64,000 nucleotides of DNA from an uncultured Holophagales bacterium (GCA_963842525.1 CAWJGT010000003.1:1376001-1440000); one strand, 5' to 3'. Shown: positions 27,399 to 63,900, counted from the stretch's first letter. Notes: generated from the sequence alone by a model not told the origin. Program-made: numbers and translations.

Positions 27399-27521
27399 TT
27401 CGAAGGACTTGTCCGCGCTGCACCCCTGCCGGCCCCGAATGTAGCACGGGGCTGTGGCAGTGCTGTAAATAGATTGTAAAAGATGGCTCCCGCGCTGCGC
27501 CGCGCGGGTTCTCCCCCCACT

Positions 27522-31400: not shown

Positions 31401-32056
31401 GGCTGGGGCAGGCGGACTGCATTGTCCCTTTTAAGGAGGCCCTTGAGCTTTTCGAGCTAATTGGCGACAGGACCGGTGCGGCGACTTGTGCGTATAACCT
31501 TGGGCATGCCTTCAAAGATTTGCTTGCTCTCCGTGACCTTTCCCAGGCCGAGCGCTGGTACCGAAGAAGCCTTGAGCTGCGCGACGAACGTAATTGGCTG
31601 GGCTACGGTCTTTGTTGGAAGCAGCTGGGGGTGGTAGCTCACCAGCGATTTAAAGACGCCCGGGCCGTAGAGCGGCCCGAGGAAGAGCTTCTACAATATC
31701 TGAACGAAGCAGTGAGGCTTTCCCATAGAGCTCTCGATTTTCTTCCGTCGAATGCGGTCGACGCCTTGGCCGATACTCACAGTCAACTTGGTGAGTTTTA
31801 CCGCTTAGCAGGAGACATCGGCAGCGCCCTGTCTTACTTCCGGCAGGCGATCCAGCTCTTTGAGGAAGCGGGTGATCTCTATTGGGCCACAGCGACCCGC
31901 TTCAACATTGCTCTCGTCTTCTCTAACACCGGCCGTCGGGCGGATGCCTTGGAGTACGCCGAGGCGGCGCTGCGGGGATTCGAGAGCTACGGGGAGGGGG
32001 CGGCGGAGGAGATTGAGGAGGCTCGCGGGTTGATCGCGGCGATCCGCGGAGCGTAG
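28436..32056 (+). CDS. CHAT (caspase-like protease) - STAND NTPase - TPR protein
   Basis: IPWELL, HVVHFDGHG (His), LVLNACRS (Cys), Walker A AGSGKTT, Walker B LWIWDNVE, GNPLTL, C-terminal TPRs. Confidence 0.88.
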   Translation: MDMLHLRLHQHAVGEGRHRVDLSLDGDGAPRTATSTFDFSLTPQDGEDLRWYLEEFLQYPQEPAPTIARRIEGRMAEVGTELFKGVFQENDDARDVWSRVRERLGETRIEIITGVAEASTIPWELLREPKRDAALALTAHSFVRAQPNAALAPQLPVRKKGKIRILLVICRPQAEQDVPFRSVANQLIRGLDAANREAYDLDVLRPPTFEQLGKVLRQAHRDGNPYHVVHFDGHGMYREIKEPGALGTLVGHLTSIVLAGPRAGKHGYLWFENPQLEAGSELVDGTSLGQLLAATGVPVLVLNACRSAHTEPAAEPGAADDPHSQVRAFGSLAQEVMDAGVAGVVAMRYNVYVVTAARLAAELYAALARGGSLGEAVTLARKNLADNPLREVIYAPLPLQDWAVPVVYEAAPLKLFPKAKDDSGLKINISNIAAGASATASPQAAGLDPDLPPSPDIGFYGRDETLLALDRAFDRDSIALLHAYAGSGKTTTAAEFARWYSLTGGVEGPVLFTTFERYLPLPRVLDRIGQVFGPALEGADVHWLALDDATRRQVALQVLAQVPVLWIWDNVEPVAGFPAGTESAWNATEQEEVLDFLRALRGTRVKILLTSRRDERSWLGDLPTRIAVPPMLMTESLQLVRALAAKRRRRLTDVEDWRPLLAFAQGNPLTLTVLAGQALREGLKTKGQIEDFVARLRSGEAAFPDEILEGRSRSLGASLAYGFEQAFNEEERKKLALLHLFQGFVDVNVLLAMGLPEVAWCLPEVRGLTRDQGITLLDRAAEVGLLAAHGGRFYGIHPALPWFFKGLFEQCYPAEDFVAARAFVEAMSALGEYYILQYASGNQDVLVTLRAEEANLLHARRLARGHGWWAQITSTMQGLRALYEPAGRWAEWKQLVEEVVPDFVDPSNDGPLPEREEEWSLVTQYRVLLANEEGRWAEAERLQTAHVKWIRQRAALSLALPVEELAGEGRNEVRALAVSLHALGQNRRGLGQADCIVPFKEALELFELIGDRTGAATCAYNLGHAFKDLLALRDLSQAERWYRRSLELRDERNWLGYGLCWKQLGVVAHQRFKDARAVERPEEELLQYLNEAVRLSHRALDFLPSNAVDALADTHSQLGEFYRLAGDIGSALSYFRQAIQLFEEAGDLYWATATRFNIALVFSNTGRRADALEYAEAALRGFESYGEGAAEEIEEARGLIAAIRGA

Positions 32057-42743: not shown

Positions 42744-44576
42744 GTGGCCAGAGTTGACTATGACGGGACCGAGATCGCCGTAGTCGGGATGGCTGGACGC
42801 TTCCCCGGCGCCCGCGACGTCGCCGAGCTGTGGCGCAACCTGCACGGCGGCGTAGACGCCGTGCGCCGGCTGAGCCCGACGGAGCTCGCGGCCCTGGGCG
42901 TACCGGCCTCTCTCATCGCCGATCCTGACTACGTGCCGGCGACCGCCCAGATGCCCGACGTCGAGAGCTTCGACGCTCCTTTCTTCGGCGTGAGCGACCA
43001 CGAGGCCGAGATCCTCGATCCTCAACAGCGTATCTTCCTCGAGCTCGCCTGGGAGGCGCTGGAGGACGCGGGGTACGATCCAGAGGTGGATCAGCGCGCC
43101 GTGGGCGTGTTCGCCGGCGCGAGCCTCAGCACCTACCTGCTCTTCAACCTGTCCGACCCGTCGCGGCGCGCCACGTTGGACCCCTGGGAGGCCCTGGCCG
43201 CCAACTCCGGCGACTCGCTCGCCAGCCGCATCTCCTACAAGCTCAACCTCAAGGGTCCGAGCTTCACGGTGCAGAGCGCCTGCTCGACTTCCCTGGTGGC
43301 CGTCCATCTCGCCTGCGCGAGCTTGCTCAACGAAGAGTGCGATGTGGCATTGGCCGGCGCGGTATCGATCAAGGTCAACCTTCTCGCCGGCTATCTCTCT
43401 CGCGGGAGCGCGGGATTGTCGCCCACGGGCCGCTGCCGCTCCTTCGACGCCGGTGCCGACGGCATGTTCTTCGGCCACGGCGGCGGGGTGGTCGTGCTGA
43501 AACGCCTGGCCGATGCGCTGGCCGACGGCGACACGGTGCGGGCGTTGATCCGCGGCTCGGCAGTGAACAACGACGGCAACGTCAAAGTCGGCTATGCCGC
43601 GCCCAGTGTCGAGGGTCAGGCCGCAGTGCTCACCGAAGCCTGGTCAGTCGCGGGCATCGACCCCGGGACGCTTTCCTACATGGAGGCGCACGGCACCGGG
43701 ACGCGCCTGGGCGACCAGATCGAGGTGCAGGCGCTGGAACGCGCCTTCCGCCCGCACACCGCGCGCAGCGGCTTCTGTGTCCTGGGGTCGGTGAAGACCA
43801 ACATTGGCCACCTCGACGCGGCCGCGGGTGTCGCCAGCTTGATCAAGACGGTGCTCTCTCTCGAGCATCGGCAGATCCCGCCGAGCCTGCACTTCGTCCA
43901 ACCCAGCCCGGAGATCGACTTCGCTGTCAGCCCGGTGCGGCCGGTCACCGAGCTCGCCGACTGGCCGGCAGAGGGGGACCGGATGCGCCGCGCCGGGGTG
44001 AGCTCCTTCGGCCTCGGTGGCACCAATGCTCATCTGGTCGTCGAGGAGGCACCGCTGGAGGCGCCGGCGCCGTCCCGTGCCTGGGACATCCTGCTCCTCT
44101 CGGCGCGCAGCGAAGAGGCACTGGAGCGTGCCACGGACGCGCTCGCCGCCCATCTCGCGAGCCACCCGACGCTCCCCCTCTCCGACGTCGCCTTCACACT
44201 GCAGACGGGTCGCCGCACCTTCGCCCATCGCCGAGCGCTCGTTTGCCGCCCGGAAGACGACGTGGCCGGCCTGCTGCTGCGGCGCGATCCCGAAAGGGTG
44301 CTCACGCGGCAGGTGGAGGCGACGGGGCGGCCGGCGTCCGTGGCAGGACCCATGGAAGGTATAACTGCGCTCGATCCCCACTCTCTCGCTCAGCTCTGGC
44401 TATCCGGAGGACGCCCGGACTGGCGGGCGTTCCACGCCGGCGAGCGCCGGCGCCGCGTGCCGCTGCCGACCTACCCGTTCGAGCGCCGGCGGTATTGGCT
44501 CGACGCCCCCGGCGTGCCGCGTCCACTGGGCGCTCTGGCCGACGCCACCCTGAAAGTCATGGAGAGCGCTCGATGA
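42744..44576 (+). CDS. Stand-alone type I-like ketosynthase (KS plus flanking linker; no AT, no ACP)
   Basis: IAVVGMAGRFPGA, DPQQR, VQSACSTSLVA (Cys), EAHGTGT (His), KTNIGHL (His), SSFGLGGTNAH, LPTYPFERRRYW. Confidence 0.92.
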   Translation: MARVDYDGTEIAVVGMAGRFPGARDVAELWRNLHGGVDAVRRLSPTELAALGVPASLIADPDYVPATAQMPDVESFDAPFFGVSDHEAEILDPQQRIFLELAWEALEDAGYDPEVDQRAVGVFAGASLSTYLLFNLSDPSRRATLDPWEALAANSGDSLASRISYKLNLKGPSFTVQSACSTSLVAVHLACASLLNEECDVALAGAVSIKVNLLAGYLSRGSAGLSPTGRCRSFDAGADGMFFGHGGGVVVLKRLADALADGDTVRALIRGSAVNNDGNVKVGYAAPSVEGQAAVLTEAWSVAGIDPGTLSYMEAHGTGTRLGDQIEVQALERAFRPHTARSGFCVLGSVKTNIGHLDAAAGVASLIKTVLSLEHRQIPPSLHFVQPSPEIDFAVSPVRPVTELADWPAEGDRMRRAGVSSFGLGGTNAHLVVEEAPLEAPAPSRAWDILLLSARSEEALERATDALAAHLASHPTLPLSDVAFTLQTGRRTFAHRRALVCRPEDDVAGLLLRRDPERVLTRQVEATGRPASVAGPMEGITALDPHSLAQLWLSGGRPDWRAFHAGERRRRVPLPTYPFERRRYWLDAPGVPRPLGALADATLKVMESAR

Positions 44577-44592: not shown

Positions 44593-47038
44593 TTAAGTCT
44601 TCGGCACCAGCTTCAGGACGTTGACCGGCTTTCCGGGCAGGAACCGCGTTGGCCGCCCATCCTGCCAATCGGCGTGACCATCTCGATAGTGGGGCGAGAG
44701 CGGATGAGCGCTCTGACCGACCGGCATGTGGAAGATCCCGGTCTCCTCGTGTCCCGGAGAGACCACCATCCGCTCCGAGGCGCTGAAGATTGGGCTGGCG
44801 ACCCGCGGCATGTCCAGGTCACCCGGGACCGGCTGCGGCGGCACGTCGAGCCAGTGGGCGAGCAGCGGTATCGAATAGCTCAGCGGGTGCCGGACCTCCT
44901 GCATGTTGCGTTCGCCCCAGGTCCGGTCGGCGAGGTTGGGCCCGAATTTGCGCAGGTCGTCGACCGCCCAGTCGGAGACGGCGAGGATCTGCTCGTCCCA
45001 GCTCCTGTAGCGGGGATCGAGCAGATGGGCCGGGCGTTCCGTCACCAGTCGCCAGAGCGGCGCGTCGAAGCGCCGCCGCGCCCGATACCACGGCAGGCTG
45101 GGCTCTTCCTTGAGGCCGGTCAGGCTGGCGAACACCCGCTTTTCGAGCTCATCCCGGAACTTGCGCACCACCCGGTAGGCCACCGAATCGATCGACGCCC
45201 GGCCGGTCCAGGTGGACACCAGGATTCGCCGCAGCTCGCCGCGCCGCGGATCGGCCTTGATCGCTTCCGGCGTGAGCGTCTTGAGCAGCAGACCGTGCCA
45301 GCGCGCCACGAAGAGCGCCCGATCGTCGAGTTGGAGGGCCAGCATGTCATTCGATGTGGCCCGCTCCAGGCTGAGCAGGCGGTCGCGGATCTGCATCGCG
45401 CGCGGCCCCAGGTCGTAGCAACCGTCCCCCAACCGCGCCAGCATCTCGCCGTCGACGGCCCGGTTGTTGGCCGACCAGATCCGGCCGGACGGAGGATCGA
45501 CCACCTTGGGGACTTCGTCCGAGCGCAGCAAGCCGTCCCAGCGATGAGAGCCATCGGCCCAGGAGCCGGGCACCTGACCGCTCCAACCGATGCGCCGCGG
45601 CAGCTTGCCGATGATCGTCCAGCCGATCCGTCCGGAGGCATCGGCGACGATGAAGTTCTGCGGCGGCAGGCCGCTGGCGTGCGCGATTTCGATCGCCTCA
45701 TCGACATTCTTCGCCGTCTCCAGGCCGAGGATCTCCAGGTTCGTCGCCTCCGGGAGGTCGGCGGTCCAGGCGATGGCGCGCCGCGGGCGTCCCTTCCCGT
45801 CCCGCCCGTCCCGGCTGACGACCGGACCCCAGATCGTCTTCACCACGTCGAACGTCTCTTCGGGCCCGTCTTTGACCAGAATGCGCTCGGTGTGGTGCTC
45901 GAAGCGCCGCGGGCCGTCAGGCGTCCGGTAGGCCTCGGGGTCGTGTGGATCGAGCTCGAGATCCACCAGGTCGATGACGTCGGCAAAGCTGTTGGTGAAG
46001 CCCCAGGCGATCCGCCCGGTGCTCCCGACGGCGAGCACCGGCATTCCCGGCAGCGTCACGCCGGTCACCCGCCGCTCGGCCCCGTCGGGCTCCCGCCAGG
46101 TCCAGGAGGCCCGGTACCAGACGTTGGGCACATCGATCCCGAGATGCATGTCATTGGCGAGCAGAGCATGGCCGTCGGCGGTGTGGGCCCCGGAGACCGC
46201 CCAGCCGTTGCTGCCCTTGCCGTCGAGCTGCCCGCTGCCCGTCCACCACCCGGACAGGGTTTCAGCCGCGCCCGGCCGGGACAGCGCGGCTGCCTTCGCG
46301 GCCCGCGGCTTCCGGAGGTCGAGGACGTCCGGACCGGGGATCGGAGGGGTCGGGAAGGCGTCGCCGACGAGCGGCGCATCCCATTCGGTGCCCACCGGCT
46401 CCACGAAGTCGAAGACCTGCGCCGGCACCCGGTCGTGGATCTGCCCGAGCTCCGCCTCGACGCGCCCCCGCGAGTCCTGGAGGTCGAAGTACATGGCATA
46501 GACGGCAAGGAGGCTGTCCTCAGCTCTCCAGGGCCGCGGCTCGGCGCGCAGCAGGATGTACTCGAAAGGCTTGTCGCCCAGCGACTTCAGGCCGGCGTTG
46601 ACCCCTGCCGCATAGGCCTCCAGGAGGGCACGGTGGAGCGGCGTCATACCGGCCAGGACACGGCCGGCCAGGCTGCGAAAACCGTGCAGGCGGCGTTCCT
46701 GGTCGAACTGCACCAGGTTCGGTCCCAACAGCTCGGCGTTCTCTCCGGCCGCCGCCCGCCGCAGCAGATCCATCTGGAAAAAGCGGTCCTGCGCGTGGAC
46801 GAAACCCAAGGCCCGCGCGGCGTCCAGCCGGGTGGCGGCCCTGATCGTCGGCACTCCCAGAGCGTCCCGTTCGATCGTCACCGGCGCCTGGAGCCCCGGG
46901 ATGGCGAGCGCCCCGGAGCTGGGGCAGGCTGGCCACCACCCGGTGCCGCAGCCAGAGGCCGCCGCCCAGCAGTATGAGGAGCAGCACCCCCACCAGCAGG
47001 AGGAGCCAACGGGCGATCCTGCGCTTCCCTCCGGTCAT
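44593..47038 (-). CDS. Penicillin acylase family Ntn-hydrolase with N-terminal membrane anchor (frameshift near 46905)
   Basis: GFVHAQDRFFQMDLLRR, G|SNGWAVSG nucleophile, LANDMHL, WGFTN, SANN, GQSAHPLSPHY. Confidence 0.9.
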
Positions 47039-47985
47039 TCGGCCGCATCCTGCCCGGCACCGTGCCCCAGGCGCTGGAGCTTGCGCCGGCGCCGCTCGCC
47101 GCGCTCCCGGACCGCGTCGTAATTCCTGGGTGGGCCGCTGTGGAGGAGCAGCCTGGTCAGGGCGCTCACCGTCGGTCCCTCATACAGACGGACGGTCGGA
47201 ATGTCCTGGTGCAACCATTCCTTGAGCACGGCGATGATCCGGACCCCGGCGATCGAAGTCCCCCCGAGCTCGAAGAAGTTGTCGTCGACGCCCACCCGGC
47301 CGAGGCCGAGCTCCTCCTGCCAGAGGCCCGCGATCGCCGCCTCCAGGCGATTGGTGGACGGCGCATACTCGGTGGCGAGCTCCGGGCGCTCGCGGACCGG
47401 TCCGGGCTCGCCCGCCGTCTCCGCCCCCTCCGACGCATCGCGCCGAGCCCGGGGGACCGCCGCCGGGGGCGGCTCGAGCGCGTCGACTGCCGAGCCGAGG
47501 ATCACCGCCAGAATGCGGTCGCCGTCCGCCAGAGCCTCGGGCAACCGCTTGAGCACCACGACTCCCATCCCCTCGCCGCGCACCGGCGTCTCGCCCGCAA
47601 GCGCCAGATCGCACTCCCAGGCATGCAGGCTCTGGCAGGCACGCTCGACGGCCGCGAACGCCGCCGGGCCGGGGACGGTGACCGCCGGCCCGCGCAGGCC
47701 GAGCTCGCCGGCCACATCGGCCGCCAGGCTGTCGCCCTCGTCGCCGCGGAGGCCGCGAAGGAAGACGCCGCTGCGGTCGGCATCCATGCGAGTGGCATAG
47801 GCCGCGTCCTCGAGCGCCTCCTTCGCACCGTCGAGGAAGAGCCGCGCCTGGCTGATCCAGGGCTCGCGGTGGGGATCGTCGGCGGTCGGTCCCACATCGC
47901 CACAGAGATAGCGCCAGAGAGACTCGATCGTCGGCTCACCGGGGAACCTCCCAGCCAAGCCGATAATGGCAGTGACATCAGCCAC
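47035..47985 (-). CDS. Truncated inactive KS-like domain fused to a carrier protein (ACP/PCP)
   Basis: AIIGLAGRFPG, EALEDA, GLRGPAVTVPGPAA (no catalytic Cys), GEGMGVVVLKRL..A.ADGD. C-terminal DNFFELGGTSI. Confidence 0.8.
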   Translation of the reverse strand: MADVTAIIGLAGRFPGEPTIESLWRYLCGDVGPTADDPHREPWISQARLFLDGAKEALEDAAYATRMDADRSGVFLRGLRGDEGDSLAADVAGELGLRGPAVTVPGPAAFAAVERACQSLHAWECDLALAGETPVRGEGMGVVVLKRLPEALADGDRILAVILGSAVDALEPPPAAVPRARRDASEGAETAGEPGPVRERPELATEYAPSTNRLEAAIAGLWQEELGLGRVGVDDNFFELGGTSIAGVRIIAVLKEWLHQDIPTVRLYEGPTVSALTRLLLHSGPPRNYDAVRERGERRRRKLQRLGHGAGQDAAE

Positions 47986-48932: not shown

Positions 48933-51900
48933 TCAATCTGACTCGCGTCCGTCCTCGACGGCGGCGAGAGCGCTCTCCAGATGCTCCACCAGTTGATCGA
49001 GGGCCGGCCTCTGGAGCAGGGTCACGTGGTCAGCATCCCGGATGAGATGAGCTTCGGTCCTGGCAAGCTGCGCCCAGCCCGACGTGAGATCCGTGGCCCC
49101 CGGAGCCAGCGAGGCGTCGGCCCGGAAGATGGTCACCCGACCGCCGTAGGGGCGCGGCAGGTAGCTCTCCACGGTTTTCATGGTGCGGCGGTACAGCTCG
49201 AAGCGCTCCCGCAGCCACGGCTTTCCCAGGTCCGGAGCCAGCCCCCCCTCCCGCGCCAGCTCGAGCAGACGGTCGAGGCCGGCCTCCACGTCCAACCCTT
49301 GCAGCATTTCGCGAATCAACAGCCTCTGCTCCTCGGAAGGACGCCCGAGCCGTGCGAAAGCGATCAGGAGCCCGGTGTCATCGACGGCTTCGAGTCGCCC
49401 ATCCGGTGGTGACCCTGGGTCGAACATCGTCAACAGCGACGTGGTACCGCCCGTGCTCTCGATCTGCCGTGCCATCTCGTAGGCTGTGATGGCGCCAGAC
49501 GACCAGCCGGCCAACAGCCAGGGTCCCTCGGGCTGGACCTCGCGCACCGTCACCAGGTATTGCGCCGCCAGATCCTCCATCGATGGCGGATGACCGTTGC
49601 CGTCCCCGACCGCTTGCAGGCCGTAGACCGGACGCTTCGCCCCGAGCCTCTTCGCCAGCTCCACGTAGGAAAAGACGTCTCCTCCCACCGGATGCATCAG
49701 GAACAGCGGCCTCCCCGCTCCTCCCGGATGCAGACGCGCCAGCGGCGAACGCTGCACAGGCCCCTTCTTGATCACAGCCGCCAGGTGTTCCACCGTCGGC
49801 GCCTCGAACAGCGCCGAGATCGGCACCTTGACCCCGAAGACGCGCTCGATGCGCGCCATCACCTGAACCGCCAGCAGCGAGTGGCCGCCCAGGTCGAAGA
49901 AATGACTGTTCGCTCCGACCCGTTCCAGGCCGAGCACGTCGGCCCAGATGCCGGCGACGAACTTTTCGACCGGCGTCCGCGGCGCCACATAGCTCTCCTC
50001 GCCGCCCTGCTGCTCGGGAGCCGGCAGGGCCTTCCTGTCCACCTTGCCATTGGGCGTGAGCGGCAGCGCCGCGAGCGGCACGAACGCGGCCGGCACCATG
50101 GAGTCCGGCAGCCGCTCGCGTAAAGAGCGACGCAGCACGTCGGCCGCGACGTCGCTCACGACATAGGCCACCAGCCTCCGGTCGCCAGCCCCCCTTTCGA
50201 GGGCGTCCTCGCGCTCCTCCACGACCGCCGCGCGCACTCCGGGCAGCGCGACCAGAGCCATCTCGATTTCACCCAGCTCGATGCGGACGCCGCGGATCTT
50301 GACCTGGTGGTCGGTGCGGCCGAGGAAAAGGATCGTGCCATCCTGCCGCTGGCGGACGAGGTCGCCGGTGCGGTAGAGGCGGGCGCCGGGCACCGCGGCA
50401 AAGAGGTCTGGAACGAAACGCTCCGCCGTCAGGTCAGGGCGGCCGAGATAGCCCCGCGCCAGCCCGGCGCCGCCCGCACACAGCTCGCCCGGCACGCCGA
50501 GAGGCACGGCCTGGTGCAGGCGGTCCATGATCCGTAAACGCACGTTGTCGAGAGGCCGGCCGAGAGGCGTGATCGCCGAGACCTCGCCGGACCGGCACGG
50601 GTGGAACGACACGTCGATGGCACACTCCGTGGGGCCGTAGAGGTTGCACAGCTCGATACCGGGCAGGCGCTCTAAGGCCCGCTCGCAGAGCGACGCCGGC
50701 AAGGCCTCGCCGCCACAGAACAGGAGCCGCAGTGGAGCGCCGCGCAGATCCTCGTCCAGGAACAGGCCGAGGATGGAGGGCACGAGCTGCAGCACGGTCA
50801 CGCCCCGTTCCCGCACCTCGCGCGCCATCACCGCCGGCTCCCGGTGCGCATCCGGCGGCGCCAGCACCAACCGCGCCCCGGTACACAGCGGCAGGAAGAT
50901 TTCCCAGATCGCCGGGTCGAAGACGTGCGTCGTCTTCTGGAGCACGGCGTCAGCTTCGGTCAGTGGGAAGGCGCGCTGCATCCAGAGCAGGCGGTTGGCG
51001 ATGGCGCCGTGCGAGACCAGAACGCCCTTGGGACGGCCGGTCGAGCCCGAGGTGTAGATTACGTAGGCGAGGTGGTCCGGCGAGATCGAGACCTCCAGCG
51101 ATGCCGTGTCATCGCCCGCCAGGTCCGCGAGATCGAGGGTGCGGTCATCCTGGAGCAGCTCCGGAGGGGCACCCGGCCCGGCAATCACGACGGCCGGCCT
51201 GGCGTCGTCCAGCACGGCAGCCATCCTTGCGGCGGGGTACTCCGGGTCCAGGGGCACCCAGGCGGCGCTGGCCTTCCACACCGCGAGCAGGCTCACCACC
51301 ATCTCCGGCGAGCGTTCACAACAGACGGCAACGCGATCTTCGGGCCTCACGCCCCGGCGGATCAGGAGGCGAGCCAGCCGGCTCGCCTGCGCTTCAAGGT
51401 CTCCGGCGGTGAGAGCACGGCCTCCTTGTTCCAGGGCGGTCCGTTCCGGCGCACGCGCGGCCTGCGCCGCCACCAGAGTGGAGAGGACCGGCACGGCGCC
51501 GTGTTCCACCGCTGTGTCGTTCCACTCCACCTGGACCTGCTGCTGCTCCGCCGCGCCGAGCAACGGCAGCTCCCTCGCCCATCGGTCTGGTGCTTCTACG
51601 GCCGCGGCCAGCAGGCGCTCGAAGCTCCCGGCGAGGCGGTCGATGGTCGCGGCGTCGAACAGATCGGTGGCATAGTCGAGCCGGCCGGCCAGCTCGCCGT
51701 CGTCCTCGCCGAGGCTGAGCGTGAGATCGAACCTCGCCATCGCCTCGGTCCCACCCAGCGGCCGCAACCGCAGATCCCGGATCTCCAAGCTCTCGACGGG
51801 AGCGTTCTGCAGCGCGAACATCACCTGGAACAAGGGCGTGTGCGCGAGGCTCCTCTGGGGCGAAAGCTCCTCGACCAGTTTTTCGAACGGCACGTCCTGA

Positions 51901-54900
51901 TGCAGGTAGGCCGCCAGCGCCCTCTTCCGTGCCCTCCCGAGCAGCTCGTGGAACGACGGGCCGCCGGCCCTGTCTCCAGCCCTGCCTCCAGGCAGGTTTC
52001 CACTCAAATCGCCGCGCAGCACCAGCATATTGACGAAGAACCCGATCAGCCCCTCGATCTCCGCCCGGTTGCGGCCGGCGACGGGCGAGCCCACGGCGAG
52101 ATCGTCCTGTCCGCTGATGCGCGCCAGGAGGGCCTGGAAGCCAGCCAGGAGCACCATGAAAAGTGTCGCTCCCTCGCGCCGGGCGAGAGCCGCCATCTGC
52201 TGGGTGAGGCCGGCCGGCAGCCGCACCGGCCAGGAGGCGCCACGTGAGCTCCGCCGGGCAGGCCGCGGCCGGTCGGTCGGCAAGTCCAGCAGCGGCGGCA
52301 GCCCTGCAAGCTCCTGGCGCCAGAACGAAATCTCCTGCTCCAGGACCTCGCCGTACAGCCAGGAACGCTGCCAGACCGCGAAATCCGAGTATTGCACCGC
52401 CAGCTCGGGCAAGGGTGACGGCTGGCCGGCGGCGAAGGCCGGATAGAGCACCCTGACCTCGCGCACCAGGACACCCATGGACCAGCCGTCGCTCGCGATG
52501 TGGTGCATGGTCAGCGCGACGACGTGGTCGCTCGCTGAGAGGCGCAGCAACACGCCGCGCAGCAATGGACCGCGCGCGAGATCGAACGGCCGGCCGGCCT
52601 CGTCTGCGGCCAGGGTGAGCGCCTCCGCCTCGCGCTTTCCCTGGGGCAGGCCTGACAGATCCACCACGGGCACCGGGAACGGCGCGGCCGGCTGGATCAC
52701 CTGGACCGGCGAGCCGTCCAAGCCCTCCAACACTGAGAAGACCGTGCGCAGCGCCTCGTGGCGGTGCACGATCTCGCTGAGAGCGCCCGCCAGCACGCCG
52801 GGGTCGAGCGGCCCTTCGACCCGTAGGGCCACCGGCAGGTTGTACAGCGGGCTGTCCGGATCGAGCTGATCGATGAACCAGAGGCGCTGCTGGGCGAAGG
52901 AGAGGGGCCGCGGCTCCTCCGATCCGCCGGCCCGCGGGATGATCGCAGACGGCGCAGACGGCGCAGACGGCGCCGGACGCTCATAGCCGAGGCGTGCGGC
53001 CATCTCCCAGGTCGGCTCACCGAGGGAGTCTGACTGCGCCTCCCGGGAGCGCTCGGCAACCCCCGCCTCGACGCCTTTGTATTGGAGAAACTTCACATCC
53101 CCGAGCATCTTTCCCTCGGCGTGGATGCCATCCGTCATCCGCGCCCGTCCCTCCTGATAGGGATTGACCATGGCGGGGTCGAGCTCGAGCCCCAAGGCGT
53201 CGCAGAGTTTCCGCAGCTCGGCTTCAGGGTGGCGCACCAGGTCCTCGAAACGGATGGGGATCTGGCGTTCCGCCGGCACATCGGCAAGATGCTCCAGGAT
53301 ATTCGCGTGGCTCGCCTGCCAGATCAGCTCGGCCAGCTCGGCCCGTTCGAACGTGTGGGGGTGACGGAAGAACAGCTCGTCGAGCTTGATCTCGTCGAAC
53401 GAGCGGATCGAGGCGTAGGGATGGCGCAGGAGATGAATATAGAAAGGTTTTTCAAACGCTTGCTCGGCCCGCCTCAGGACGGCCAGGTCGAGCGCATAGG
53501 TGGTCGTCTTATCGACCAGGGTCCGGCCGCCCAGCCACTCCTGGAGCTGGCGGTAGAAGCGCTGCGTCGTCCAGCCTTCCTCAACGGCGGCACCGACGAT
53601 CTGCCGCGCCTCCTCGACGCCGCACTGGCGCACCTCCATCACAGCGCGGATCAGACCCTCCAGCCAGAAGCTGTCGCGGCCCGGGAACGCGGCCTCGCGG
53701 TCGGCCATGGTGTTGAACGAGAGCAGCTCGAGCTCCGGGGGCGCGAAAAGCTGCGGATGGCCACCGAGCATGACGCGCAGGAGCGTCGAGCCCGCTCGCG
53801 GCGGGGAGAGGATGAAGATCGCGGGCGGGTTCTTCTCCGCCGCCAGATCCTTGGACTCCGGCAAGGGGGGGATCACCGAGCGGAAGGCGGCGATCCGGGC
53901 CAGGTCGACGCGGCCGGCCGCCGCTCGCGGCGCGCGCGCCACCTCCGCGCCGAGCGACACCTCGCCCCAGAGGCGGACGACGGTCTCCCGCTGCTCGCGC
54001 GCCAGGTAGGCTGCCATCTTCGCCACCGTGGGGGCGTCGAAGAGGACGACGACGTGGATGACCCCGCTCATCTCCCGTTGCAGCCGGTTCATCAGGATCG
54101 CGCCGGTGATCGAGTTGCCGCCGAGATCGAAAAAGGAGTCGTGGATGCCCACGCTCTCCAGGGCGAGCGCCTGGCACCAGAGGCCGGCCAGATACTCTTC
54201 GAGCGGCGTCCGCGGCGCGGCGGCCTCCGCCCCAGCGGCGGGCGCCTCCGGATCGGGCAGCGCCCGGCGGTCGACCTTGCCGTTCGCGGTGCGGGGGAAG
54301 GTCGCGACGGGCACGAAGACCGCCGGGATCATGTAGCTCGGCAGGCGGTCCTGGAGGTGGCTCCGCAGGCTGGCGACGAGGTCCGGGTCCGCTTTGCCGG
54401 CGGTCACCCAGGCGACCAGGCGCTGCGCGGTCCCCGCGCCGCGCAGGTCCACCACCGCCTCCTGGACGGCGGGATGCTCGGCGAGGACCACCTCGATCTC
54501 CCCGAGCTCGATGCGGAAGCCCCGCACCTTGACCTGATGATCGATCCGGCCGAGGAACTCGAGCGCGCCCTCCGTCCGCCAGCGCGCCAGGTCGCCGGTC
54601 CGATAGAGCCGCGCGCCCGCGGCGGCTCCCCCCTCTGTTTCAGACACCGGGTTCGGCACGAACGCCAGGGCGGTGCGCGCCGGATCGCCGAAATAGCCGC
54701 GCCCCACACCCTCGCCCCCGATGCACAGCTCGCCCGGTACGTCCAGGGGTTGCGGCTGGAGGTCCCGGTCCAGGACGTAGAGCTGCATGTTGGCCACCGG
54801 ACGGCCGATCGCCGGGCGCCAGGCCGGGTCGGCCGGCACTTCCCGGATCGGACTGAAGCTGACGTCGTCGGAGCACTCGGTGGGGCCATAGGCGTTGAGC

Positions 54901-57900
54901 AGCGGAATGCCGGGATGACGGGCGAGCCAGCGCCGGCAGAGCTCCGGCGGCAGGGCCTCGCCGGTGGGGATCAGCCAGCGCAGGCGCGACAGGTCGTGAA
55001 CGCTCCCCTCCTCGCCCCCGTCCATGATCTCCAGCATCGCCACCAGCAGCGAGGGGACCAGCTCTAGCACCGTCACTCCGTCGCGCACCACCGCGGCGAG
55101 CAGCGCCGCCGGATCGTGGGCGACCGCGTCCGGGTAGATGGCGACGCGGCCTCCAACAGCCAGGGCTGACAGCATCTGCCAGACGGAGATGTCGGAGCTC
55201 TGGGCGGCGTTCTGCGCCACCGTGTCCGCGTTCGTGAGGCCGAACACCTCCAGAGTGATCAGCGTGTGGTTGGTGAGGCCCCGGTGGGGGATCATCGCGC
55301 CCTTGGGCAGCCCGGTCGAGCCGGAGGTGTAGAGGACGTAGGCGAGATGGTCGAGCCCGGCTCGCACCGGCTGTGGCGCCGCCTCGCCGTCCAGGCATAC
55401 CAGGTCCTCCAGCTCCAGAATCTTGAGGAACGGCGGCGCGTCCGGCTCCGCCGCGAGCAGTTGCGGACCCAGGCCACCGCCCGAGAGAAGCAGGCGGGAC
55501 CCGCTCTGGCGCAGCACTCCCAGGGCCCGCGCGGCAGGGTGCTGGGGATCGAGCGGAAGATAGGCGCCGCCGGCCTCGAGAACCGCGAGAACCGCGGTCA
55601 CGAAACCCAGGCCGCGCGGGGACAGGATCGGCACCACCGATTCGGGTCCCACACCGTGGCCGACCAGCACCGCCGCCCAGCGGTGGGTGCGGCGCAGGAG
55701 CTCGCGGTAGGTCAGGCGCTCATCGCCGTAGACGGCGGCCACTGCTTCCGGCGTCCTCTCCGCCTGTGCCGCAAACAGATCCTGAAGGCAGACGGCGGGG
55801 GCGACGAATTGCGAGTCGTTCCACTCGCAGAGGGTCTGGTGGCGCTCGGCCGCGCCGAGGAGGAGCAGAGCGGAGAGATTCCTCCCGGGATCGGCCAGCG
55901 CCGCCGCGAGCAGGGCCGCGAAGCAATCGCACAGGCGGGCGATGCGCGTGCCGTCGAAAAGATCGCTGTTGTATCGCCACTGGCAGGACAGCCCCCCGTC
56001 GGCCTCGGTGGCGTTGAGTACCAGATCGAACTTGGCTGTGGCGGAGCCAGACTCCATCGGCCGGAGGCGCAGGCCGGGCAGCTCCAACACCCCCATAGGG
56101 GCGTTCTGGAGCACGAACAGGACCTGGAAGACCGGGGAATGGCTGAGGTCGCGCTCCGGGGACAGGTCGTCCACCAGCTTCTCGAACGGGAGATCCTGGT
56201 GGGCGTAGGCGCCCAGGGTGACCTCCCGAGTCCGCCCCACCAGCTCGCGGAAGGACGGATCGCCGGAGAGATCGGCGCGCAGCGCCAGGGTGTTCAGGAA
56301 CAGGCCGATCAGCGGCTCGGTCTCGGCGCGGTTGCGGCCGGCGATCGGCGAGCCGACGACCAGGTCGAGCTGGCCGCTCAACCGGGAGAGCAGGGCCGAG
56401 AGGGCGGCGAGCAGAATCATGAACGGCGTCGCGGCGGTCTCCCTCCCCAGCTCCGCGGCGCCCTGGAGTGGCAACTGTTGGAGCTGCGACCGGCCGCGAT
56501 AGCGCTGCACCGCCGGGCGCGGCCGGTCGGCAGGCAGCGCGAGGAACGGCGGTGCTCCGGCGAGGCTCTCGCGCCACCAGCCGAGCTGGGCCGCGAGGGT
56601 TTCGCCCTGAAGCCGCTGCCGTTGCCACACCGCAAAGTCCGCATACTGCACCGGCAGCTCCGGCAGCGGGGAGGGCTGGCCGGCGGTGAAGGCGGCGTAA
56701 AGTGCCGCCACCTCGCGCACCAGGATGCCCATGGACCATCCGTCGCTCGCAATGTGGTGCACGGTCAGCGCAACCACCTGATCGCGGTCTGCCAAGCGCA
56801 ACATCACGCCGCGCAGCAGGGGCCCGCGCGCGAGATCGAACGGTCGGGAAGCCTCTTCGGCCGCCAGCGCGGAGGCCAGAGACTCGCGCTCCGGAACCGG
56901 CAGTCCCGACAGATCCACCACCGCCAGCGCGAACGGCACCGCCGGCTGGATCACCTGCACCGGCGCGCTCTCCTGCACGGCAAAGACCGTCCTCAACGCC
57001 TCGTGACGGCGCACGATCTCGCCGAGGCAGAGAGCCAGCGCCGCAGAGACGAGCGGCCCTTCGACACGCAGCAACAGCGGCATGTTGTAGAGCGGGCTTC
57101 CCGGCTCAAGCTGATCGAGGAACCAGAGCCGCTGCTGGGAGAAGGACAGAGGCAGGGGTTTCTCCCGGGGCACCCGGACGAGCGGCGGCACGGACACCGG
57201 TTTGGCTGTTTGCAGCGCGGCCTCGACGCGGGCGGCGAGGTCCGCCAGCCGCGGTGCTTCGAAAAGGACACGCACCGGCAGCTCGACGCCCAGAGCACTG
57301 CGGAGACGGGATATCACCTGGGTCGCCAGCAGGGAGTGGCCCCCCAGGTCGAAGAAGTTGTCATTGGCTCCGGCCTCCCGTTCGAGGCCCAGCAGATCGC
57401 CCCAGGTGGCGGCGAGGATCTGTTCGACCTCGGTGCTCAGAGGCACCGCGTCGCCCACCGGCTCGGAGCGCAGCGTTTCCGGTGCGGGAAGAGCAGCGCG
57501 GTCCACCTTGCCATGAACGGTCAGAGGCAGGCGGTCCAGGAGCACGACGGCCGAGGGGATCATGTACTCCGGAAGCTCGCCTTGCAGGAAGCGGCGCAGC
57601 TCCGGCACCAGGCGCCGCGCCACCTTGTGGCGCAACGGATCGTTGGCGTAGGCGTGCGCCGGCAACCCCGCGCGCTGCCTCGGTGGCGAGGGCACCGCCA
57701 CCCCATCGGCACCGAGCCGCAGCACTGCGGCAAAGCGGTATGGATCCCTGGGATCCCAGGTCAGGCCGACCGAATAGCCGAGCTGCTCGCCGAGCTGCCA
57801 CAGCTCCTCGGGATCGATCGCTTCCGCGGAGGCCGCGCGTTCCGCGATCACCTGCCGCAGCTCCCCCACCGTCCCCCCCTCGGATCCGACCCCCTGGTCG

Positions 57901-60900
57901 AGCCCCGCCAGGAGCGTCACCGCCGCCGCTTCGACGGCGAGCCGACGGTTGGGGATCGCCGTCAAGGCCAGCGTCCGCGGACCAGCCTCCAGCCGCTCGG
58001 CCAGCTCGGAGAGCGACAGGTTTTGTGCCTGCCAATCGAGCCAGTCGAGAGCGTCGTCCGGCTCTTGCAGCGCGCCGACATGGAGCACGGCGTCATAGCG
58101 GAAACGGCTCAGCTCGTTGTGATACCGGCCGCGCTTTACCAGGATCTCGACGTGCCGGATCTCCGGCAATCGCCGCGCCAGGGCGAAGAAGAAGCCGGGG
58201 TCGACCAGCAACTCCTCCTCGGTCGCCAGACGCCGAAGAATGCGCTGCCGGAGATCCGCCACCGGGAGATCGTCCGCCGAACGGTACAGCTCGACCGAGG
58301 TCTGGAGCGATTCGAGGAGTGGCAGGCTGCGCAGGTCGCCAAGGAAGACCCGGCCGCCGTGAGCCACGCTCGCGACCGCCCCTTCGACGACACGGATGAG
58401 ATAGTCGATCCCGGGGAAATACTGCGTCACCGAGTTGAGGACGACTGTGTCGAAGTCCCCCGCGGCCACACCGCTCCAGTCGTCTGCCGTCCGGCATTCG
58501 AGGGAGACGCCCGGCAGACCGCCTGTCCGCTCGATCTGTCGGCGGATTCCTTCCAGGGCGACAGACGAAAAGTCGGTGCCTTGATAGATCTCTGCGTGCG
58601 GCGCCACCCGGAACAGCAGCAGGCCGGTACCACAGCCGACCTCCAGTATCCGGCGTCCGCCGAGAGCGAGCACTCGTTCTACCGTCCGGTCCACCCACTC
58701 ACGCATCTCCTCGGCAGGGATCGGAGCGTCCGTGTAGCTGCTGTTCCACCCTTCGACGTTGAAGGTGGCGTCGACCTCGATCCCAGTGGGTTCTGAGGCG
58801 CCGTAGGTCTCGTCGTAGAGAACCTGCCAGGCGGCGATATGCTCCGCATCGGCGGCTGCCTCCGACAGCATGCAGCGCACCACGTAGGCCACCAGACGCT
58901 TGCCCGACGGATCGTCCTGCACGGCGGCCACCGCCTCGCGCACTTCCGGATGGCGGCCGAGGGAGCTCTCCACCTCCCCCAGCTCGATGCGGAATCCGCG
59001 CACCTTGACCTGGTGGTCGAGACGGCCGAGAAACTCGATGTTGCCGTCGGCCAGGCGCCGCACGCGGTCACCGCTGCGGTAGAACCGCTCACCGCCGCAG
59101 AGGACGTACTTCTCCGCGGTCAGCTCGGCGCGGCCGAGATAGCCGCGCGTGACGCCCCGGCCGCCGATCCACAGCTCGCCCGGCACGCCGATGGGCAGCA
59201 GCTCTCCGTCCGCGCCGCGACCGTTCCGAACATCGAGCACGGCGCCAGCCAAGGGCCGGCCGAGCAGCGGCCTCGCCGGTTCGGGAGGCGGCGGCACCGG
59301 GTGCGCGGTGCACAGGATGGTCCCTTCGGTCGGCCCGTAGAGCACCCAGACTCGCGCGGCTGGGAAGGTCTCTCGCAGATCCTCCAACAGCTCGCCAGGA
59401 ACGGCGTCGCCGCCGACGAACACCGCGCGCAGTCTTTGGATATCAGCGCCCCGCCGGCGAATCGCGTCGACGACCTGCCGCATCAACGCCGGCACGGCGT
59501 GCAGACAGGTCATCTCCCCGAGACGGTCAGCCAATCCCTCCACATCCAACGTCGGCCGCAGCGGGAAGAGCACCGCCGTGCCGCCGCTGAGCAACGGCGA
59601 CAGCAGCTCGAAGAGGAAGATGTCGAACGTCGAACTCGCCAGGCAGGGCATGCGGTCGCCTGTTCCAAAACCGAACAAGGCCCGGGTGGCGGCGAGGGTG
59701 GCCGCGAGCATGCCGTGCTCCACCTGCACCGCCTTGGGCCGGCCCGTCGTGCCGGAGGTGTAGATCAGATAGGCGAGGCTGTCCGCGGCAGGCAGGCCGA
59801 GAGGCTCGTCCCCGTCGCCCTCCAGCTCTTCCAAGAGAAGAATTTCTCCACCGTACGGCGGGAGGCTCGGGAGAAGGTGCCGCTGAGTGACCAGCAGCAG
59901 GACCGCCGCATCCTCCAGCAGGAAAGCGACGCGCGCCCGGGGATGCGCGGGATCCAGGGAGAGCCAGGCGCAACCGGACTTGAGGATGGCCAGCACCCCT
60001 ACCACCAGGTCCGGGGTGCGTTCGACGCAAAGCCCCACTACCACTCCCGGTCCGGCTCCCAGCGCGCGCAGGCTCCGGGCCAGCCGGTCCGACCGGCGGT
60101 CGAGCGCGCGGTAGGTGAGGCTCGCCTGCTCGTCCCCGGCAAGAGCCACCGCCACAGCCTCGGGGGCGCGGCGCGCCTGCGCCGCGAACAGCTCGATGAC
60201 ACCCGGTGCGGCCGGAACGGGCGTGTCGTTCCACTCGGCACGGAGCTGGTGGCGCTCGCCGTCCGACAACAGCGGAAGATCCTGGAGGACCCGGCCAGGA
60301 TCGGCCGCACCCGCCGCGAGGAGCGTCGTCAGATGGCCGGCGAGACGCAGGATCGTGGCGGCATCGAAAAGATCGGCCGTGAAATCGAGCCGGCCTCCCA
60401 GCTCTCCGTCGGCCTCCGTGAAGGTCAACCCCAGCTCGAATTTCGCCGTCCCCGCATCCCGCAAGGAAGAGGTGATCGACAGGCCTTCCAGGTCGACCCT
60501 TTCGTACGGAAAGTTCTGCAGCGCGAACATCACCTGGAACAGGGGCGTGTGTGCGAGGCTCCTCTCCGGGGCGAGATCCTCGACCAGCCTTTCAAACGGC
60601 ACGTCCTGGTGCATGTAGGCCGCCAGCGCCGTCTCGCGCACCCGGCCGAGCAGCTCCCGGAACGACAGCTTTCCTGTCACTTGACCGCGCAGCACCAGAG
60701 TGTTGACGAAGAACCCGATCAGTCCTTCGATCTCCACGCGGTTGCGCCCCGCCACCGGCGAGCCGATCGCGAAATCGTCCTGGCCGCTCACGCGCGCCAG
60801 GAGAGCCTGGAAGCCGGCCAGGAGCACCATGAACAGCGTCGCTCCCTCGCGCCGGGCGAGAGTTTCCAGAGTCCGCGTGAGCCCGGCCGGAACCCACACA

Positions 60901-63900
60901 GGGCAGGTGCCGCCGCGGAAGCTCTGCACCGCGGGACGCGGACGGTCGATGGGCAGCTCCAGCACCGGCGGCAGGCCCGCGAGCTGCCGGCGCCAGAAGC
61001 CGATCTCCTCCTCCAGAACCTCGCCATGCAACCAGGAGCTTTGCCACAGAGCAAAATCCGCATACTGCACGGACAGCTCCGGGAGCGGCGACGGCACATT
61101 CTGGGCGAACGCTGCATAGAGCGTCGTGGCCTCGCGCACCAGGATACCCAGCGACCAGCCGTCGCTCGCGATGTGGTGCATCGTGAGCGCCGCCACGTGC
61201 TCCGCTTTTTTCCCAGAGCCATCGAGCCGCAGCAGCACGCCGCGCAGCAGCAGATCGCGCTTGAGATCGAACGCGCGGCCGGCCTCGTCTCCCACCAGAA
61301 CGGGAACCAGTTTTTCGCGTACGGCTTCCGGCAATCCCGACAGGTCGACCACGGGCAGCGCGAACGGCGCCGCTGGTTGGATCACCTGCACCGGCGCGCC
61401 TTCCAGGCCCTCTGACACCGCAAAAACCGTCCGCAACGCCTCGTGGCGGCGCACGACCTCACCGAGGCAGAGCGCCAGCACGCCACGATCCAGTGGCCCC
61501 TCGACGCGGAGCGCGATGGGGATGTTGTAGAGCGGGCTGCCCGGTTCGAGCTGATCGATGAACCAGAGACGCCGCTGGGCGAACGACAGCGGCAAGGGCT
61601 CTTCCCGGGGGAACGGAAGCAGGGGCGGAGCGATCGCCGTGGTACCGGCCCGCATCGCCTCGACCCGGGCGGCGAGGTCCGCCAGCCGCGGAGCTGTGAA
61701 GAGATCGCGCAGAGGCAACTCGACGCCGAAGGCGCTGCGCAGCCGCGACACCACCCGGGTGGCCAGCAGGGAGTGCCCTCCCAGATCGAAGAAGCTGTCC
61801 GTCGCTCCGACCTGTTCGCGACCGAGCAGCTCGCCCCAGATGCCGGCAACGACCTCCTCGACCGGCGTCCGCGGCGCGACGAACGCTTCGTCAGAGCTTC
61901 TGCCACTCCGGAGCCGGCAACGCCTTCCGGTCCACCTTGCGGTTGGGCGTCAACGGCAGCTCGGCGAGAAGCGTGAAGGTGGCCGGCACCATGAACTCCG
62001 GTAACCGCTCGCGCAGGAAGGAGCGCACCTCAGGCACCGCCAAGGTGATCCCGGCGGCCGGCACCAGGTAGGCCGCCAGGAAGCTTTCCGGTCTCACCAC
62101 GACGACCGCCTCGCGGACCCCCGGGAAGCCGCCGAGCACCGACTCGATCTCCCCCAGCTCGATGCGGAAGCCGCGGATCTTCACCTGCGTATCGGCCCGC
62201 CCGGCGAACACCGCTTCGCCGTTCGGCAGATAGCGTCCGAGGTCGCCCGTCCGATAGAGATCGGCTGCGAAGCGCTGAGAGGTGAGCTGCGGATCGCCCA
62301 GATATCCAAGGGCGATGTGCGGGCTCCGCACCGAAACCTCGCCCATCTCGCCGATGCCGGCCAGCCCGCCGCCCGGGTTGAGCACCAGGAGCTGGACGTC
62401 CGGAATACCGCGGCCGAGCGGCAGGATCTCCCGCGGCTCGCGGTCGTCGGCAACGTGGTAGCCGACGGCGCGTTGCGTCTCGGTGGAACCGTAGTAGTTC
62501 ACGCAGGTGACGTTCGGGGCCAGCGAGCGCAGCCGCGCCACGTCACGGCGGGTGAGGACATCCCCCACCAGGAACGCATAGCGCAGTGACGGGACCTCAA
62601 GGCTGAGGACACCGAGATCACCCGGCGCTTCGGTGGTCAGCACCTGACCCAGAGCGGGCGTGAGATGGGTGATCGTCACCGCCGCACGGCGCATCCAGGC
62701 GGCGAGCGCGCCCGGATCGTCCATCGTTTTCGGATCGGGGATCACCACCGCAGCGCCGAGCTGTAACGGAGTGAACAGGTCGCGGTGCAGCGGATCGTGC
62801 GCCAGGCCCGACAGCATGCTGAAACGGTCGGCGGCCGACAGATCAAAGCGCTGGCGCAGCCACGGGATGAAATGCGACAGCGAGCCGTGGCGGCCGAGCA
62901 CCCCCTTCGGCACGCCCGTCGAGCCGGAGGTGAACGCCACATACGCGGTGTCGTCCGGTCCGATCTCCACGGGCGCAGGAGCTGCCGGGAAAGCCGAAAG
63001 GACATCCATTTCCCCGGCATTGTCAGCCTTCGCCGGCAGGGTCAGGCGGCAGGAGCAACTGAGAGCGTCGAGAGCGCCGTCGATCTCCACCGGGACCGGA
63101 CCGGCCGCCGCGACGCGGAGCCAGGCGGCTGGCCGCGCGATCTCCAGCATCTGGGCCTGGCGCGCCGCCGGATAACGAGGATCGAGCATCAGGAAGGTGG
63201 CCCCTGCCTTGAGAGCTCCCAGCACGCCCCAGACCAAAGGCGCGCTGCGGTGAGCCCAGAAGGCCACCACGTCCCCGCGCCGCACGCCACCCGCCTGGAG
63301 GAACGCGGCGAGCCCGTCGGAGCGCTCGTCGAGCTCGCCGTAATTCCAGGACTCCGCCGGATCCGCCGCCGCGAGCGCCCCGGGGTCTCGTCGGGCATGG
63401 CGGGCGAAGATCTCGTGGACCGCGCCCTCCCAGGCTGCCGACAGCTCCGCGGCCGGATCGGGCAGCAGCTCACGCGACGCGGCGGTGACCAGTGCGTGCC
63501 GCCCCACCGGCTCCTCCGGCCGCTCCAGCGCCTGCTCCAGGAACAGCGCGAGCTGGTCGAGCAGGTCCTCCATCCGCGCCGCGTCGAACAGGTCGGCGTT
63601 ATAGACCAGGTTCACCTGGACTCCGCCGTCTCCTTCGCTCAGATAGAGCGTCATGTCGAGCTTGGAGAGAGGCGCCGACGGCGCCATCCCCGCCCCGTCC
63701 AGCTCCAGGCCAGGGAGGCGCATCGCGGCGGTCGGTACGTTGACCAGGTTGACCATCACCTGGAAAAGCGGCGTCCGTGAAAGGTCGCGCTGCACGGGGA
63801 GGGCCGCGAGGACCGCTTCGAAAGGCACGTCCTGATGAGAATAGGCACCGAGGGTGACCTCCCGCACCTGCTCCACCAGACTGCGGAAGCCAGGCTGGCC

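Follow-up and report, generated by a model that had tools for sequence, protein, structure and literature searches.

Why would a sulfotransferase lie in the middle of a peptide assembly line, between a carrier and the next condensation domain, and which residue would it modify? A 64,000-nucleotide stretch of the genome of an uncultured Holophagales bacterium (G000:C3:1376001-1440000, hereafter the window) raises this question. It encodes a sulfotransferase domain (ST) inside a non-ribosomal peptide synthetase (NRPS), in a module with the order condensation (C), adenylation (A), carrier (T), ST. The genome has 9.95 Mb, 68% G+C and 34 contigs. Coordinates are counted in the window, and those beyond 64,000 continue the same contig outside it. 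Judging from sequence, a modest balance of probability favours side-chain sulfonation in cis by this C-A-T-ST module, dependent on 3'-phosphoadenosine-5'-phosphosulfate (PAPS) and acting on a carrier-linked substrate; here it would probably be N-sulfonation of 2,4-diaminobutyrate (Dab).

The ST is part of a single open frame of 4338 codons on the - strand (48936-61949), which forms the end of a very long line of NRPS and polyketide synthase (PKS) modules. The protein called from its first GTG, P0001, spans 48933-61754 and has 4273 aa. Pfam profiles matched three Condensation, three AMP-binding, three PP-binding, one inserted methyltransferase (MT), one Thioesterase (TE) and one Sulfotransfer_3 domain in P0001, and the motif positions give the order (T)-C-A(MT)-T-C-A-T-ST-C-A-T-TE. 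The nucleophile of the TE is a serine (GWSSG), not a cysteine. The sequence features quoted in the original prediction were all found at the places given there, on the - strand and inside this one frame. The features are the following:

48933..61949 (-): NRPS open frame with the last three modules; stop codon at 48933-48935
57198..61622 (-): preceding module, with C, A (code DIFHFGLIL) carrying an inserted methyltransferase, and T (Pfam and motifs)
P0001 residues 1017-1144 (-): inserted methyltransferase of the preceding module (Pfam)
P0001 residue 1467 (-): carrier of the preceding module, FFDLGGHSL (motif)
55875..57197 (-): C domain of the ST-bearing module, with HHIASDGWS at P0001 residue 1666; boundaries approximate, set by motifs
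54195..55802 (-): A domain, code DIWEITADD(K), PvdL/Dab-like (pocket read-out and PDB alignment)
53985..54194 (-): carrier T with the unusual core FFDLGGNSI, Ser at P0001 residue 2548 (motif)
54108-54134 (-): FFDLGGNSI motif, P0001 2541-2549 (motif search)
52971..53837 (-): ST domain of the CurM and olefin synthase (OLS) type, P0001 ~2640-2928 (Pfam, PDB search, AlphaFold2 and Foldseek)
53778-53819 (-): IFILSPPRAGSTLL, PAPS-binding loop region, P0001 2646-2659 (motif search)
53418-53432 (-): LLRHP, P0001 2775-2779 (motif search)
53238-53252 (-): RFEDL, P0001 2835-2839 (motif search)
51537..52910 (-): C domain after the ST, P0001 2949-3406 (Pfam Condensation)
52851-52904 (-): LSFAQQRLWF, start motif of that C domain, P0001 from 2951 (motif search)
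49980..51470 (-): last A domain, code DPWQFGLID, unassigned (Pfam and pocket read-out)
48969..49958 (-): terminal T and TE (Pfam), with the TE motif GWSSG at P0001 4083-4087

The sulfotransferase domain proposed in the original prediction, and its assignment to Sulfotransfer_3, were borne out by profile, structure and model comparisons. The profile PF13469 matched residues 2644-2860 over its full length (positions 1-216 of 216, E 3.6e-28) with 99.8 bits against a curated cut-off of 27; by this score, the match is far beyond chance. A PDB search with the stretch between the carrier and the C domain gave first the ST of CurM (4gbm, 7.7e-58, chain residues 29-312 of 323) and second the ST of an olefin synthase (4gox, 2.5e-57, chain residues 20-304 of 313). 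An AlphaFold2 model built from 55 family members (pLDDT 86.8, pTM 0.88) again had 4gbm as its top Foldseek match (E 5e-25, TM 0.82 for the query and 0.94 for the target), followed by 4gox and then by tyrosylprotein sulfotransferases at TM ~0.5.

The domain carries PRAGST, the PPEL Glu, the VDK Lys and, within LLRHPYASIRS, an Arg and a Ser. We take PRxGST to be the 5'-phosphosulfate-binding (PSB) loop, and the Arg and Ser of RHP...S to bind the 3'-phosphate. The 55 aligned family members (alignment A1, which leaves out L022 with its stop inside the stretch) show no variation at the Arg, Gly and Thr of the PSB loop, at the PPEL Glu, at the VDK Lys, or at the RHP...S Arg and Ser. PPEL and VDK align with CurM and OLS, the PPEL Glu falling on e63 of the CurM chain; we assume, from the structure work on the CurM ST, that they hold its catalytic residues Glu60 (the PPEL Glu) and Lys133 (the VDK Lys). 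All PAPS-binding and catalytic columns are kept; a lack of conserved catalytic residues was among the grounds that the original prediction gave for its refutation. By sequence and predicted fold, this confirms a complete CurM/OLS-type PAPS sulfotransferase, placed between T and C.

The A domain of the module resembles that of a pyoverdine synthetase. With the A4 and A5 motifs as anchors, and presuming GrsA numbering for the pocket columns, we re-derived its pocket code as DIWEITADD plus the A10 Lys (NGKVDR), i.e., the DIWEITADDK previously read by hand. The same columns in other A domains of the genome give codes that we take to be those of Thr (DFWNIGMVH), Gly (DILQLGLIW), Ala (DLFNNALTY) and Phe (DAWTVAAVC); these are recognised canonical codes, and therefore an internal control for the choice of columns. 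A PDB search restricted to the A4-A5 region placed four PvdL chains first (including 9up2 and 9lcp, E ~4e-42); with the whole A domain, LgrA scored above PvdL. The aligned PvdL pocket reads DIWELTADD, identical at eight of nine positions with Ile for Leu at the fifth, which agrees with the earlier description of DIWELTADDK as a pyoverdine-type signature. The PvdL module with this pocket presumably loads 2,4-diaminobutyrate. Three acidic residues (E, D, D) are kept in our pocket, which fits a cationic side chain. Dab is named as a substrate of the pyoverdine NRPSs in a figure legend of PMC11855355. On its pocket, the A domain is thus PvdL-like and probably loads Dab, most likely L-2,4-diaminobutyrate. 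The genome has a homologue of 2,4-diaminobutyrate transaminase on another contig (469.5 bits, NCBIfam cut-off 401.6) and also encodes an APS kinase.

Modules of this kind are numerous. The original prediction had treated the architecture as singular, which did not hold: the genome itself has seven ST copies (54-62% identity), all in A-T-ST-C order, and the A codes before the other six are of Thr type (four) and Ser type (two). We searched 40 related genomes, 24 of the same family and 16 of other families of the order, calling matches strong at E<1e-90. Strong matches occurred in 22 of the 24 genomes of the family, with as many as 11 in one genome, and the open frames that hold them reach 15,714 codons; the remaining two genomes had weak matches only. 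In the other families of the order, 3/16 genomes had strong matches, 3/16 weak ones and 10/16 none. The named relatives are metagenome-assembled genomes (MAGs) labelled Acidobacteriota or Thermoanaerobaculia, with one labelled Deltaproteobacteria, and a distant one is a Rubrivivax MAG (43% identity). Among 1.84 billion representative proteins there were 5176 matches at E<=1e-3 and 1164 at E<=1e-30, each standing for a cluster. The proteins that contain the best 150 range from 429 to 6979 aa, and a motif scan of these found 132 ST domains, with a carrier before the ST in 101 of 114. Where enough downstream sequence was present, a C domain followed the ST in 52 of 54 cases and an ST-TE pair in none (0/54). 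In the literature searched, mostly without subscription journals and supplements and seen in part, we found no prior account of mid-line A-T-ST-C modules, nor any of how widely they occur in Acidobacteriota.

In one relative (G016), three ST domains lie about 4.3 kb apart in one frame of 9634 codons (G016:C25:417956-427483; L013, L037 and L038). They belong to three consecutive A-T-ST modules, two with DLKN-type codes and one of Thr type, which points to poly-sulfonated products.

The modules that the ST domains follow were surveyed in 65 strong matches from the related genomes, chosen by assembly quality before the codes were seen, together with 8 further loci from the same search, 8 loci of named relatives and the copies of the genome itself. 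After dropping the duplicates L017, L019 and L020, and leaving the late loci L086-L090 uncoded, 79 ST domains remained. The A codes before them were distributed as follows:

Thr-type: 32/79
Ser-type: 19/79
Tyr-type (DASTVAAVC/G): 4/79
Dab-like DIWEITADD (this locus, G023, a named MAG, G020 and G024): 5/79
DALVSGC-type: 5/79
DLKN-type: 3/79
other single codes: 3/79
unreadable (contig ends, inserts): 8/79

Modules for Thr, Ser or Tyr thus precede 55 of the 79 ST domains. As a control, we compared A domains with and without a following ST inside the same best 150 representative proteins. Thr, Ser or Tyr types made up 54/98 of the A domains before an ST and 13/89 of the others (odds ratio 7.2, Fisher p 8e-9, a value overstated to the extent that the relatives are not independent). 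Dab-like codes occurred in 7/98 of the former and 0/89 of the latter. Across the family, the ST domains are linked to modules for residues with a side-chain nucleophile.

The DALVSGCIF/VF code stands before five STs (L040, L041, L043, L070 and L071, in G016 and G024). At four of these five loci there was no HHxxxDG motif in the ~300 aa read past the ST, and they may represent a distinct sub-architecture.

The carriers directly before the ST have a core of their own. It reads GGNSI in 43 cases, GGSSI in 11, GGTSI in 7 and GGDSI in 7, i.e., in 68 of the 79, and the other carriers of the same open reading frames (ORFs) have GGHSL in 16 of 26. The module studied here fits the pattern, with a GGNSI carrier, the ST and then a C domain. 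Partner-specific carrier cores are known for carriers that serve epimerisation domains, and the GG[N/S/T/D]SI core may, from its distribution, be a comparable partner-recognition signature. Such a dedicated core is an argument that the substrate of the ST is whatever the adjacent carrier holds.

We also considered a specialised C domain after the ST at this locus, and rejected it. This C domain is 72% identical to the first C domain of P0001 and groups with C domains of the orthologous lines that do not follow an ST, i.e., with the ordinary C domains of its own line.

The phylogeny of the 79 ST domains (FastTree) places the five Dab-associated ones in two separate clades. The first holds the ST of this locus with those of G023 and a named MAG (support 99), and the second, elsewhere in the tree, those of G020 and G024 (support 99). 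A Pro follows the catalytic Lys (DKTPSY) in 53 of the 55 STs associated with Ser, Thr or Tyr, and CurM and OLS have DKSPTY. The Pro is replaced by Thr in all three members of the first Dab clade and by Ser in both members of the second. Such changes next to the catalytic Lys, made twice independently, are compatible with adaptation to a different acceptor, and the alignment thus suggests that the acceptor differs in these clades.

Comparison with characterised systems separates what is familiar in this module from what is not. The STs of CurM and OLS (4gbm and 4gox) have the same fold and family, with ~39% identity in the structural alignment, TM 0.94 and 0.93 and E ~1e-57. Like the present one, they stand directly after a megasynthase carrier, and they share with it the PAPS-binding residues and the Glu/Lys pair. 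In CurM and OLS the ST is part of a PKS-terminal ACP-ST-TE unit (ACP, acyl carrier protein), which acts on a beta-hydroxyacyl chain and leads to decarboxylative olefin formation. In contrast, the ST studied here lies mid-line in an NRPS (A-T-ST-C), with the TE one module later, and has PPELELL for PPELHLL. On sequence grounds, it is a member of the CurM/OLS ST family and not of the ST-TE olefin-forming unit. The next-best structural matches, TPST1/2, act on peptides and share the PSB loop, but they are distant (TM ~0.5, 17-20% identity) and are free-standing Golgi enzymes. The last A domain of PvdL has DIWELTADD where ours has DIWEITADD; PvdL has no ST, and its Dab amine goes into the ring of the pyoverdine chromophore.

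NRPS-fused STs tied to a sulfated residue have been described in OciA (cyanopeptolin-1138/oscillapeptin) and DysB (dysinosins), according to parts of PMC2533009 and PMC6520454. As these partial descriptions have it, those STs belong to starter modules with a glyceric-acid (FkbH-type) loader and the glyceryl hydroxyl is sulfated, which sets them apart. The ST here, unlike them, is found in an elongation module that has an A domain and is the second-to-last of the line, and the Pfam matches of P0001 include no FkbH-type domain. ST domains within NRPSs are therefore already in print for glyceric-acid starters; what appears new, from the architecture, is the mid-line A-T-ST-C arrangement with a Dab-like module.

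The closest precedent for the proposed chemistry is SulN of the sulfazecin pathway, said in the original prediction to N-sulfonate carrier-bound diaminopropionate (Dap). The part of PMC11298585 that we consulted agrees: it describes PAPS-dependent N-sulfonation, in trans, of a Dap tripeptide bound to a peptidyl carrier protein. SulN would thus share the N-sulfonation of a diamino-acid side chain on a carrier. It is a separate protein, the Dap is in the last module, and a Cys-TE then closes the beta-lactam; the ST here differs in acting in cis, next to a pocket of the 2,4-Dab (PvdL) type, with another module following and a Ser-TE. A figure legend on mined clusters in the same source lists 'S: sulfotransferase domain'.

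With these elements we propose the following mechanism. The A domain would charge the GGNSI carrier with a Dab-like diamino acid, L-2,4-diaminobutyrate being the most likely. The ST would then transfer the sulfo group of PAPS to a free side-chain nucleophile of the residue or peptide held on the carrier. Here the nucleophile would be the gamma-amine, giving N-sulfo-Dab (a sulfamate). The chain, now sulfonated, would be handed by the ordinary next C domain to the last module, and release of the product would fall to the Ser-TE (GWSSG). The C-terminal tripeptide predicted in this way is N-methyl-X, sulfo-Dab, X. The residue on the adjacent carrier as the acceptor, its identity as Dab, nitrogen as the sulfonated atom and the timing of sulfonation relative to condensation are all inferred. 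SulN shows N-sulfonation of a carrier-bound diamino acid to be feasible. The original proposal of N-sulfonation of Dab followed by elongation is thus upheld in part: the T-ST-C placement, the PvdL-like pocket and the SulN precedent speak for it, and the predominance of Thr, Ser and Tyr modules in the family, where O-sulfonation would be the norm, speaks against it. A wider proposal, which we advance tentatively and at slightly less than even expectation, is that a special carrier plus a CurM-type ST before a C domain form a dedicated, undescribed in-line unit of soil NRPSs, re-tooled at this locus for N-sulfo-Dab. In a bolder branch of this proposal, a transient sulfo group would drive dehydration or cyclisation on the carrier.

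Several observations weigh against the N-sulfonation of Dab. The family norm is a hydroxyl acceptor, as the Thr, Ser and Tyr modules indicate. The first Dab clade is nested (support 97) in a group with five Ser-associated domains, which leaves room for an O-acceptor. Of the A codes before an ST, 37/98 could not be assigned. A few resemble codes for Gly or aliphatic residues (DILQLGLVW, DAFFMGVTY), and the native side chain of the adjacent residue may therefore not be the target of the ST in every case. The His that in CurM and OLS stands two residues past the catalytic Glu (PPELHLL) is a Glu here (PPELELL); since PPELELL occurs in 72 of the 79 surveyed ST domains, this change is, on the alignment, a trait of the family and not a defect of this copy. 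The Dab assignment of the PvdL module is taken from general background, and the literal string DIWELTADDK was not found in the searchable literature, the pocket being confirmed through the PDB alignment instead. There are no Dab or PAPS genes in the flank of the cluster. The transaminase gene is on contig C25, away from the NRPS genes; in its neighbourhood there is one A3-type motif ~27 kb off and no C, T or ketosynthase (KS) motif. Four of the five Dab-like A domains of the genome have no ST after them:

G000 C3:420795, C3:1530023, C34:324580 and C34:734578: further PvdL-like A domains (DISVWQ / GPTECSDD), no ST after

Lastly, the upstream assembly line is split into five frames (loci L001, L004 and L005), with breaks inside A domains near 68655-69171 and 82006-82277 and ORF junctions at 84371-84420 and 87562-87566.

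The first of these observations underlie the best-placed alternative, O-sulfonation, in which the A domain selects a hydroxy analogue (homoserine or hydroxylated Dab), or the ST reaches a hydroxyl elsewhere on the peptide, and the product carries a sulfate ester. Not only do most STs of the family follow Thr, Ser or Tyr modules and the nearest clade associate with Ser, but the structural relatives (CurM/OLS and the tyrosylprotein sulfotransferases) all O-sulfonate. Yet the pocket is that of PvdL at all aligned positions but one, its E, D and D fit a cationic side chain, and both Dab-associated clades have changed the residue beside the catalytic Lys. We therefore regard O-sulfonation as fairly unlikely at this locus.

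The sulfo group could also be lost again, as in CurM, leaving an unsulfonated product; it would be a leaving group after Ser or Thr, or would tune the amine of Dab for cyclisation. The closest solved relatives are activating sulfotransferases by their PDB titles, and such activation is the established mechanism of the CurM and OLS STs. The C domains after Thr- and Ser-associated STs partly cluster (seven post-ST ones with two others). In sulfazecin, N-sulfonation precedes and enables ring closure, according to part of PMC11298585. Tyr-type modules also precede STs (4/79 in the survey; 9/98 in the representative proteins), and elimination is impossible there. A gamma-sulfamate is ill placed for beta-elimination, the C domain after the ST is of the ordinary kind found in its own line, the TE has a Ser and not the Cys of SulM, and family members have C domains and not TEs after the ST (52/54 and 0/54). 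These points make transient activation distinctly improbable here.

Whether the line is intact was judged from an orthologue and from other metagenomes. The orthologue in G023 is one continuous ORF of 9058 aa, whose C-terminal part is 69% identical to the frame in the window over 4467 aa. A block of A codes is common to both lines (DAHITTHV, DPRHFVYRA, DIFHFGLIL with the MT and DIWEITADD with the ST), and the last A domain differs. Identity to G023 is 80% for the ST, without gaps, 82% for the third T domain, 79% and 73% for the third and fourth C domains, and 74% and 55% for the third and fourth A domains. We used identity per domain in place of dN/dS, since at 80% protein identity saturation of synonymous sites is likely. 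The ST is conserved like its neighbouring domains. The frame break between the upstream NRPS frame and the ST-bearing one is the following:

61891..61898 (-): frame break in the A-T linker; the upstream frame (61894-69171) ends in LPAPEWQKL and a stop, and the next reads ...SDEAFVAPRTPVEE...

Past this break the T domain continues in the next frame, and G023 is continuous there. Two contigs of two other soil metagenomes bridge the site (61738-61972); both are shorter by one base at 61897/61898, so that the two frames become one. Only these two were used, as most other aligned pieces are short conserved NRPS fragments from other organisms. We read the break as an indel error or a strain variant. 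The upstream breaks may be indel errors of the same kind; only 61891-61898 was compared with other data. The DNA sequencing runs matched shared at most 0.14 of the sampled words, and no RNA run was among the matches listed. A decayed or silent relic, in which the ST or the whole frameshifted line makes nothing, is very unlikely: the breaks at 61891-61898 and upstream and the KS remnants adjoining the cluster (below) would fit it, but the ST-bearing frame is open for 4338 codons, all invariant residues of the family are kept, the orthologue is continuous and the soil contigs join the frames.

Other features of the line and its surroundings were recorded. The upstream A-domain codes (61894-69171 and locus L004) include DVGEVSSID, which to us resembles a diamino-acid code and would be the second such code in the line. 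The DPRHFVYRA code belongs to an A domain whose A4 motif, 'AHDP', departs from that of standard A domains for amino acids, and the A domain with the Cys-like code DLYNLSLIW carries an inserted methyltransferase. A gene of the penicillin-amidase (Ntn-hydrolase) family lies directly after the NRPS (44596-46881, -, Pfam 1.4e-154); we take this to be the family of PvdQ. An AMP-ligase/FAAL-like starter with C-A-T-KS-AT-T, where AT is an acyltransferase domain, is encoded on the + strand at 90854-100777. With these two genes, an acylated precursor that is deacylated later is conceivable.

At the edge of the cluster, a lone KS with the KS-AT linker and without an AT (42744-44573, +) and a 316-aa protein that combines a carrier domain with a KS fragment of 46 residues (47038-47985, -) look like PKS remnants or trans-acting parts. 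Further away, a 1206-aa protein combines CHAT protease-like, AAA_16 and TPR domains (28436-32053, +). The ACR_tran match of an AcrB-family RND transporter (22945-27447, -) begins at residue 452 of 1501, reflecting either a long N-terminal extension or a mis-called start.

The finding at the level of the family is of more interest than the single locus. Sulfonation alters the charge, solubility and target binding of a peptide, and it is the N-sulfamate that defines the monobactam antibiotics. The assembly-line STs known so far are PKS-terminal activators (CurM and OLS) or starter O-sulfotransferases (OciA and DysB), and the single N-sulfonation known to take place on a carrier occurs in trans (SulN). 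If the dedicated in-line unit is real, it would make sulfated, sometimes poly-sulfated peptides, and if the N-sulfonation of Dab is correct, the present ST would be the first in-cis sulfamate-forming domain of an NRPS. The family gives a rule for genome mining, i.e., a GGNSI-type carrier, an ST and a C domain, in which the likely acceptor can be read from the code of the preceding A domain. With the Dab-associated variant, the question of N- versus O-sulfonation can be addressed in a compact A-T-ST unit. That a mid-line ST in cis recurs among the uncultured Acidobacteriota of soil suggests a whole class of sulfated non-ribosomal peptides still to be isolated.

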